A stretch of DNA of 64,000 nucleotides from Plasmodiophora brassicae (lineage: Eukaryota). The notes below the pieces were generated by a model. That model saw nothing but the letters and a program-made list of their open reading frames with translations, was not told the DNA's origin and searched no databases. The stretch spans positions 992,001-1,056,000 of the forward strand of contig CP145420.1 of NCBI GenBank assembly GCA_036867785.1, in the 5' to 3' direction. Below, piece after piece: positions 34,026 through 35,330 of this stretch. The translations under genes and the position numbers were made by a program. The stretch's first letter is position 1. Each line of letters begins with the position of its first letter.

Positions 34026-34926
34026 GGCCGTCAGGAAACAGCTCCCGAAGTACCCCTTCACAGCCATCTGCAATGATGTTCGTGTCACGCTGCCAATGCA
34101 GATTCAACTCATGTTGCCCTTGTTCACGCATAGGGGATGTCTTGACCGTTCGCTTGTCCGCCAGCTTCGAACCGCAAGGGCACCCGGAATGAGCATGTCT
34201 TCCTGTTACGAATCCGTCAAAGAGCAGATCATGTCCGCGTCGAGGAGAAACACTATGTTGTCGGCGTGCAGAACATTAACGTCCGCAGGGATGGAGAAGT
34301 TGGTAAGATGCGAATAACGAGACCTGCACGCTACTGGCTGAACATCATTCTTCAACGAAGGAAACAGAGTCTCCAGGTACGCCCGCAAGTGGCCGCAGTT
34401 GTCGACGACGTCGCAGACTTGTGTAACCTCGGCGTACACATTTGCGTCAATAGTTTCTTTCGTCATCTTCGGACCGCAAGGGCATCCGGAATGAGCATGT
34501 CTTGTTATGAATCCGCCAAAGAACAGATCATGTCCGTTACTCAAGTCTGCGACGTCGTCGACAACTGCGGCCACTTGCGGGCGTACCTGGAGACTCTGTT
34601 TCCTTCGTTGAAGAATGATGTTCAGCCAGTAGCGTGCAGGTCTCGTTATTCGCATCTTACCAACTTCTCCATCCCTGCGGACGTTAATGTTCTGCACGCC
34701 GACAACATAGTGTTTCTCCTCGACATGATCTGCTTTTGACGGATTCGTAACCGGAAGACTCATTCCGGGCGCCCTTGCGGTTCGAAGCTGGCGGACAAGC
34801 GAACGGTCAAGACATCCCCTATGCGTGAACAAGGGCAGCACGAGTTCAACCTGCATTGGCAGCGTGACACGATCGTCATTGCAGATGGCTGTGAAGGGGT
34901 ACTTCGGGAGCTGCTTCCTAACGGCC
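34026..34926. repeat. Long inverted repeat IR2 (arms 34026-34427 and 34536-34926, 108-nt loop)
   Basis: The arms are reverse complements. The inner 190 bp or so are essentially perfect. The loop contains a diverged direct copy of an arm segment. Confidence 0.95.
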
Positions 34927-35330
34927 TCCACATTTAAGTCCTTGAGCAAGAAGTTCATGTTTCATCTCGTCCCAGCGATTTCGGTGCATTAGAGCAGTAA
35001 CGCTGTACCGTCCAGAGTGAGAGAAGTGGTGCACGCGAAACGTACTCGTTAATACCCTTGTACACGAGCAGGAACCCACCGAATCCGTTTTCTGCTGTAG
35101 CACAAAACCCCAGTCTTGCGATTGGGTTGGAATTCCACCCATTCAGCTTAATGGTCTCGTTCTTATGACAGAAAGGGCACTTAATCCCGGAAGTAGCATT
35201 TCGAGGAGAAAGCATAATGGTACAAACGTTTCACCAAACTTACAGAACGGATCTGGCGGGAAAATGCCGTTCAGGGCTCGGCGGAGCGGTATCAGAACTC
35301 TGTGGGTCAGAACCAGAGCGTCCGGAAATT
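34536..35330 (-). pseudogene. Frameshifted remnant of a DUF6729-like, probably transposon-derived ORF
   Basis: IKCPFC..LNGWNSNPIAR..FLLVYK|RYC..TLPMQVELVLPLFTHRGCLDRSLVRQLRTARAPGMS resembles the DUF6729 pattern (CPxC..NPIARRV..RYxC..LP..P.LTHR..D) as recalled from memory. Stops and frameshifts are present. Confidence 0.5.

Follow-up and report, generated by a model that had tools for sequence, protein, structure and literature searches.

The fold-back IR2 in the genome of Plasmodiophora brassicae is likely a hairpin-siRNA locus that was made by accident from a dead Dada-like transposon. It lies in a 64,000-nucleotide stretch of DNA (contig C11:992001–1056000; hereafter the window) of the 25.3-Mb, 20-contig genome that our DNA searches covered. 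On its own IR2 is a modest locus, as no live target turned up for it; its importance lies in the class of fold-backs to which it belongs.

Anatomy and origin of the fold-back

IR2 is a real inverted repeat and sits where the first-pass annotation had placed it (34026..35330). Its arms, 34026–34427 and 34536–34926, form an inner stem (34239–34427/34536–34724) in which 188 of 189 bases are complementary, 183 of them in a perfect run, in agreement with the near-perfect stem of about 190 bp described earlier, and an outer stem of 202 aligned bases with 10 mismatches and 11 gap columns. RNA folding turns either strand into one long stem, with energies of −812 kcal/mol for the plus strand versus −298 ± 7 kcal/mol for 20 shuffles, and −826 kcal/mol for the minus strand. 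The mismatches (5 minus, 2 plus, 4 transversions) display no clear G–U strand bias and are not informative. An artefact of one assembly was ruled out: in an unspliced sequencing run with strain differences, four of them inside the IR2 arms, a contig crosses the loop (34364–34599), and the outer junction recurs in a paralogue at 42.9 kb.

The motifs CPFC, GWNSNPIAR, YK, RYC and LPLFTHRGCLDRSL are encoded by the minus strand, spread over two frames and separated by stops. They had been read as a frameshifted ORF continuing outward from the right arm. The motifs and the frame breaks are there, the window gene frame being interrupted by an extra base and further indels, but the break at YK|RYC is itself a real 53-nt intron (35003–35055), which is spliced in two runs and conserved in four relatives. 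The left arm had been taken for the inverted copy of this frame. The stem exists, but most of its near-perfect part (34255–34427/34536–34708) comes from a part of the gene further downstream and, in the right arm, runs against the CPFC...DRSL frame; the DRSL motif sits in the outer, 95% stem and not in the near-perfect one. The coding sequence is dead, with stops, frame breaks and the loss of segment D and the 3' half.

In a DNA search, 17 matches were obtained, spread over the window and contigs C2, C5, C6, C7, C12, C13 and C17. The fullest relative is a relic on C13 with frame breaks, split by LTR elements, to which the arms are 84–86% identical in DNA; C12, C6, C5, C17, C2, C7, C1 and C16 carry fragments of the IR2 subfamily only. 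The IR2 relatives found are dead and 77–88% identical, and within the 5' part of the element, 35285–35514 is 86–87% identical to the C12, C13 and C17 copies. Read from the C13 relic, the ancestral order is A (Cys knuckles), B, D (first Asp), C (second Asp), exonuclease, DxxH and Glu motifs. On the plus strand of the window the order is B, C inverted, a partial third B, C, B inverted and A inverted (Table 1), with segment D and the 3' half of the element missing. Four IR2 junctions overlap their donors by about 1–6 bases, as judged by eye, which fits serial template switching. Most of the catalytic core and the 3' half are gone from this copy of the element, and serial template switching may have rearranged what was left.

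Several of the relatives have histories of their own. At least two LTR elements, and probably three, are inserted in the C13 relic (C13:300–325 kb); in two of them the paired LTRs (135 and 219 bp) are 100% identical, indicating recent insertion. The C17 copy contains a 168-bp palindrome of the element's own sequence (stretch L022:4649–4816), and the C6 copy is adjoined by a 1.65-kb inverted repeat (stretch L021:4941–6594).

Table 1. Positions of IR2, its parts and associated features in the window
Feature	Position	Strand	Remarks
Sibling fold-back IR1	30910..32124		Sequence-unrelated to IR2; PHAS21-327 (30905–32126) matches within 5 bp
Left flank with spliced RING-finger gene	32495..34025	+	Duplicated at 41400–42911, 11–13% diverged; gene converges on the hairpin transcript
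Inferred spliced transcript through the fold-back	33531..35630	-	Joints in X1 and X8; one continuous molecule inferred
Left arm outer, segment B (KQLPKY...LPLFTHRGCLDRSL...KEQIMS)	34026..34255	+	Gene sense on +; 84% to C13 relic; 10 mismatches/202 versus right arm
PHAS21-326, mapped (p 3.3e-16)	34250..34480		PMC13547706 Table S6 plus offset; meets PHAS21-325 in the loop
Left arm inner and loop start, segment C with second putative catalytic Asp (VDNC)	34255..34466	-	84% to C13 relic; protein match E 2e-33
Loop, third, unpaired copy of segment B end	34461..34536	+	7 mismatches/76 versus left arm
PHAS21-325, mapped (p 1.2e-5)	34489..34924		PMC13547706 Table S6 plus offset; ends 2 bp from right edge of IR2
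Right arm inner, second copy of segment C	34537..34708	+	86% to C13 relic; pairs with left inner arm
Right arm outer, segment B in original place, continuous with element 5' part	34708..34926	-	
Segment A, Cys-knuckle part of dead gene, with frame breaks and ancestral intron	34927..35233	-	77–78% to C12 and C13 copies
Element 5' part	35234..35562	-	End near 35562 judged by eye versus C12, C13 and C17 copies
Strongly represented spliced gene, head to head with element 5' end	35600..36606	+	GT..AG joints; contig depth 126 (X1), 449 (X8)
Sibling fold-back IR3 with small extra hairpin	39234..41188		Sequence-unrelated to IR2; maps to PHAS21-323 and -324
Paralogous copy	42911..43335		Same outer junction, centre missing; 46-bp mini-hairpin 42912–42957/42982–43027

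The assignment to DUF6729 made in the first pass gained indirect support from a profile match of the C13 relic, while direct Pfam matches to pieces of the window were not obtained. Scans of four window and three relic pieces gave no DUF6729 match at E ≤ 0.05, the window pieces giving no transposase match either, and scans of two C13 pieces gave no DUF6729 (PF20499) at E ≤ 1. A genome-wide search with PF20499 listed 11 places, 8 of them over the cut-off and none in the window; three of these loci have long frames of 956–1053 aa. The long-ORF proteins match the C13 relic in tblastn with E 3e-9 at 28% identity. With a profile built from seven proteins containing both DUF6729 and the exonuclease, the read-through of the C13 relic scored 101.5 bits and that of the window 11.9, the best of 400 shuffles reaching −0.6. 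Full-length relatives carry DUF6729 and a 3'–5' exonuclease together, and IR2 is built from pieces of a dead element of this type, the link being indirect, by way of the C13 relic.

The domain order of these proteins resembles that described for Dada transposases (PMC3706591), in which D...D...DxxH...E follow one another and the first two Asp residues are about 68 apart (68 in Dada-U6_DR). In five of six full-length relatives and in the C13 relic, this spacing is 70; the motif was not matched in the sixth protein, P0005. DxxH is present in all six, and the 3' part of the C13 relic has both DxxH and Glu motifs, the catalytic roles of Asp, DxxH and Glu being assigned by motif alone. In the relative P0001, the exonuclease (PF01612) occupies residues 539–700, between D344 and the DxxH at 813; a DEDD exonuclease between the second Asp and DxxH characterizes the Laccaria and Ectocarpus type of Dada (PMC3706591). 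By eye it resembles rows of Fig. S1 of that paper; it is also found in the continuation of the C13 relic and is deleted from the window copy. Of the N-terminal CCCC and C-terminal CCHC zinc fingers of Dada, N-terminal CxxC pairs occur in P0001 and P0006, and CPFC and RYC in the window; C-terminal Cys clusters occur as well, but no clear CCHC pattern could be made out. As to an RNase H-like transposase fold, the structure model has a mean pLDDT of 46, with the core below 50, and the Foldseek and PDB sequence matches listed concern the exonuclease.

By the description of Dada in PMC3706591, the IR2 family shares with it Cys knuckles, an Asp pair about 70 apart, the position of the DEDD exonuclease and introns. 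Terminal inverted repeats, which Dada lacks, were not detected with an 18-nt probe from the one shared end that could be defined, which had no inverted match in two long-ORF copies or the C13 relic. Dada elements insert into tRNA or snRNA genes with a target-site duplication of 6–7 bp (PMC3706591). In contrast, no tRNA or snRNA target gene was found at the copies examined here, nor, with one end defined, a target-site duplication: no tRNA genes were seen near copies at 18 loci and in the window, and no Rfam matches at 10 loci, in searches that could miss split target genes. The likeness is one of description, and we call the IR2 element Dada-like, not a proven Dada. Further homologues did not emerge: a search with the C12 piece among longer proteins retained 0 of 1361 candidates, a two-piece alignment against 1.84 billion representatives gave 0 matches with a query whose intron and frame break lowered sensitivity, and the C13 piece gave no usable match in an atlas search. 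The term DUF6729 was not found in the literature searched; the IR2 locus suggests that it may mark exonuclease-bearing Dada-like transposases.

Local duplication and transcription

The region 32495–35233 is duplicated at 41400–43335, and the duplicates differ at 217 of 1867 bases (11.6%). The IR2 fold-back is probably older than this local duplication. Its arms differ at 10 of 202 and 1 of 189 bases (binomial P 9e-4 and 2e-9 versus the divergence of the duplicates), and the unpaired loop copy at 7 of 76. Because the arms are less diverged than the duplicates, arm-to-arm copying after the duplication is suggested to have made them more alike. Among 77 bases shown to predate the duplication, the arms differ at 5, which is not significant alone (P 0.10), and the inner stem may be younger than the duplication. 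Part of a DEP-domain gene is also duplicated nearby (38002–38659/43336–44423) at 98–100% identity with 421 bp missing, an event much younger than the 11% duplication.

Four sequencing runs were inspected over 30000–38300, the RNA nature of runs X1 and X8 being judged from splicing: both contain splice joints, X16 has none, and X24, which gave no reads over this interval, says nothing either way. CT..AC joints, as expected of minus-strand introns, lie at 35524–35580, 35003–35055, 34788–34850, 33997–34053 and 33739–33800. The donor of intron 34788–34850 is present in the right arm only, intron 33997–34053 spans the left edge of the repeat, and a joint at 34324–34380 fits either arm and either strand. 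Splicing of the minus strand is thus shown to either side of IR2 and inside its right arm, and every joint within the locus that can be oriented unambiguously falls on one strand. From this we infer one continuous RNA through both arms, although no single contig spans the two. The depth over the stem is 0.35–4.4 in X1 and 1–2 in X8 versus about 20 on one flank, which could be due to processing, failure of reverse transcription or filtering.

The transcript starts upstream of the element, head to head with the strongly represented plus-strand gene (Table 1), which is probably the source of a divergent promoter. Minus-strand transcription would then enter the element from just upstream of it and continue through both arms as a single RNA. 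A restoration of coding capacity by splicing was considered and rejected: in the minus-strand splice models the longest frame, of 210–250 aa from 34958, reads across the inverted pieces, and Pfam recognizes nothing in its first 86 residues. To the left of IR2, a minus-strand GT..AG intron (32469–32519; X1, depth 15) lies inside the region of the plus-strand RING gene and indicates antisense transcription there.

Phased small-RNA loci and fold-backs

A study of another P. brassicae isolate (PMC13547706; 2026) describes phased 21-nt RNAs, two Argonautes and a Drosha-like enzyme that gives 21-nt products. It reports the organism to be without Dicer or RdRP and calls the source of siRNA precursors unclear. 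The study comprises 435 phased loci and 78,890 siRNA sequences; 90.3% of reads are 21 nt long, with 2-nt offsets, and only reads with at least 10 counts were kept. In the genome used here we found two Piwi genes and four matches to RNase III. The Piwi-domain genes are arranged in tandem (C12:592510–596413; frames of 854 and 869 aa). An RdRP family search of the genome gave no match, as did its control, so that it is not evidence.

The published phased loci are given by coordinates only and were brought onto our assembly through Pb-miR082 (Ctg_5:572038–572305), which matches 42951–42931 on the minus strand at 21 of 21 positions, read by eye, and sits in the paralogue of IR2. It fixes the offset (window position = 615216 minus Ctg_5 position), under which its precursor ends at 42911, at the edge of the mini-hairpin. 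Two phased loci, PHAS21-325 and -326, then map onto IR2 (Table 1), the latter covering the inner left arm only and leaving out 34026–34249. All six annotated small-RNA loci in the range of the window are on its four fold-backs. The suggested mapping of small RNAs to the stem is thereby answered at the level of published loci, by coordinates from another isolate. On this mapping, IR2 is very probably a source of 21-nt siRNAs.

The correspondence extends along the chromosome. At the single offset, 17 of 17 proximal phased loci overlap inverted repeats, 16 of them with at least 80% of their length inside, and overlaps fall to 1–5 of 17 when the offset is shifted by 1 kb or more. As a background, fold-backs occupy 2,798 of 200,000 bases (1.4%) in 20 systematically chosen 10-kb windows, 6 of which contain any, and the same detector finds nothing in 20 shuffled windows. 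The test set consists of 27 of the 36 phased loci on Ctg_5; the other nine (PHAS21-310 to -318) would map past the end of C11 at this offset. Ten distal loci need two more offsets, one of about −5450 with two miRNA sequence anchors and one of about −3250 that was fitted on repeats and is not independent. Of these ten, eight fall on repeats by hand arithmetic, PHAS21-336 on none, and PHAS21-338 on a 50-bp palindrome only. In all, 25 of the 27 phased loci examined on this one chromosome fall on fold-backs. At many loci the edges follow repeat edges within about 0–11 bp, and paired loci break at the loop; several inverted repeats were found without any listed phased locus. A second anchor was obtained on C8, where Pb-miR104 matches by eye at the predicted place and a 1.16-kb fold-back coincides with PHAS21-383 (p listed as 0).

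Double mapping of reads from a perfect stem may bias a phasing caller toward inverted repeats. The small RNAs could accordingly derive from sense/antisense overlap or RNA decay, with phasing inflated by the repeat and the fold-back an inert repair scar. The antisense splicing in the RING gene and the joint at 34324–34380, which suits either strand, would fit this explanation, as would the abundance of fold-backs (6 of 20 systematic windows) and the short inverted duplications that arise at DNA breaks in yeast by fold-back priming (PMC11724301). However, it would not predict locus edges that track repeat edges or paired loci that break at the loop, and the 10-count read filter, the share of 21-nt reads and the 2-nt offsets in PMC13547706 argue against it, as does the restriction of the unambiguous joints to one strand. 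We consider it very improbable.

Our preferred reading is that of a hairpin precursor: the IR2 RNA would fold into a duplex of about 390 bp, from which a Drosha-like RNase III, an enzyme step taken from PMC13547706, would cut phased 21-nt RNAs for the two Argonautes. A fold-back source would explain the 2-nt strand offset without antisense synthesis. The main text of PMC13547706 contains neither "inverted" nor "fold-back", and what the literature from 2023 on Plasmodiophora siRNAs, inverted repeats and genome yielded concerned dsRNA control only. Phased loci on fold-backs offer a concrete answer to the question of the siRNA-precursor source in a crop pathogen without RdRP and Dicer: IR2 would be one of many fold-backs that together plausibly replace RdRP as a source of double-stranded RNA. 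More tentatively, hundreds of accidental fold-backs of transposons and gene fragments may be the main such source for a Drosha-only siRNA pathway and form a dispersed, self-renewing memory of mobile elements, with IR2 as an old entry whose target family is extinct and the C8 fold-back as a current entry facing long-ORF copies.

The siblings of IR2 and other parts of the window also contain repeats of diverse origin. IR1 (Table 1) is a nested fold-back with an 11-nt loop; the repeat families to which its parts belong have 35 matches, many of them close to the ends of contigs. IR3 has 804-bp arms at 92% identity, and its C15 and C18 relatives are also in inverted pairs; its loop (40039–40187) contains sequence 99–100% identical to the LTR of a chromodomain retrotransposon on C13. 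At 53719–55522, 99-bp direct repeats surround an array of 147–155-bp units; the flank is found again where a gag-like frame on C7 ends. A 27-bp tandem array (50833–50974 and 51270–51411) has weak protein similarity to a piece of an integrase and is matched at 71% by an LTR-like repeat on C13. Frames of glycoside hydrolase family 18 (chitinase-type) lie at 55767–58768 on the minus strand.

Targets and comparison with known systems

The first-pass annotation proposed that the hairpin could silence related copies. We found no intact live target: searching the genome with the arms for intact family members gave only relics and fragments, and all copies recovered from the IR2 subfamily are broken or fragmentary. 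Using the middle and 3' parts of the element as queries likewise returned only the C13 relic, the window and fragments; as these searches score the best candidates only, copy counts are lower bounds. The 753 21-mers of the arms have perfect matches in the paralogue (40), on C6 (25), C13 (6) and C12 (1), whereas the remaining 11 of the 15 stretches tested have none. Among these 11 are all three long-ORF DUF6729 loci, where even 3 allowed mismatches yield 0 of 753. The phased part contains 527 21-mers, of which 6 occur unchanged in the C13 relic and 160 match it when up to 2 mismatches are allowed. Present-day IR2 RNAs would thus find their matches chiefly in IR2 itself, in its paralogue and in dead relatives, and we regard IR2 as a source of siRNAs for which this assembly offers no demonstrated live target.

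Host genes are another conceivable target. The hairpin might have been co-opted, like a young miRNA gene, to act on neighbours in cis or on partly complementary mRNAs in trans. In favor of this, the shrunken hairpin of the paralogue is annotated as Pb-miR082 with five predicted targets, and the IR2 transcript begins head to head with the strongly represented plus-strand gene and runs toward the convergent RING gene. However, the five targets are low-score predictions (101–105 at a threshold of 100), the DNA searches with the arms found element relics only, and the same runs show both neighbours to be expressed and spliced, which makes co-option quite improbable.

The C8 fold-back (C8:1193994–1195157) belongs to a different, long-ORF Dada-like family. 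It is 1.16 kb long at 96.5%, is 86–93% identical to the C11 and C2 copies, and is followed by three smaller hairpins. Of its 1144 21-mers, 237 match the long-ORF copy on C11 and 62 the copy on C2, giving it a better target claim than IR2 and making it the best candidate seen for a locus like maize Mu killer.

Mu killer is a natural derivative of a DNA transposon that forms a long hairpin, is identical to part of the live MuDR and silences it heritably, with secondary steps that need RDR6/SGS3 (bioRxiv 10.1101/2020.01.09.900282). IR2 could in the same way be kept by selection, its siRNAs silencing a live transposon family in trans. The layout is as in Mu killer, the arms resemble each other more closely than expected from the age of the duplication, the phased part has the above matches to the C13 relic, and the C8 fold-back, although from the other Dada-like family, matches a long-ORF copy. 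On the other hand, no intact member of the IR2 subfamily was found in the lower-bound searches, the long-ORF loci are only about 27% identical in protein and share none of the arm 21-mers, and homogenisation of arms can arise mechanically; we regard selection for such a function as unlikely. Like Mu killer as described, IR2 is a DNA-transposon derivative with a long hairpin, and its small RNAs, as mapped, are restricted to the pairing part. Unlike Mu killer, its relatives are dead and 77–88% identical, and the host is reported to be without RdRP and Dicer.

A second parallel is found in Phytophthora, where inverted-repeat 21-nt siRNA loci such as pin-IR2758 produce heterogeneous 21-nt RNAs with the highest small-RNA yield per Mb (PMC3804510). 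The two systems have in common long genomic inverted repeats with 21-nt small RNAs. In Phytophthora, however, such loci account for 7% of reads beside a 25/26-nt transposon pathway, whereas in P. brassicae 25 of the 27 phased loci examined lie on fold-backs.
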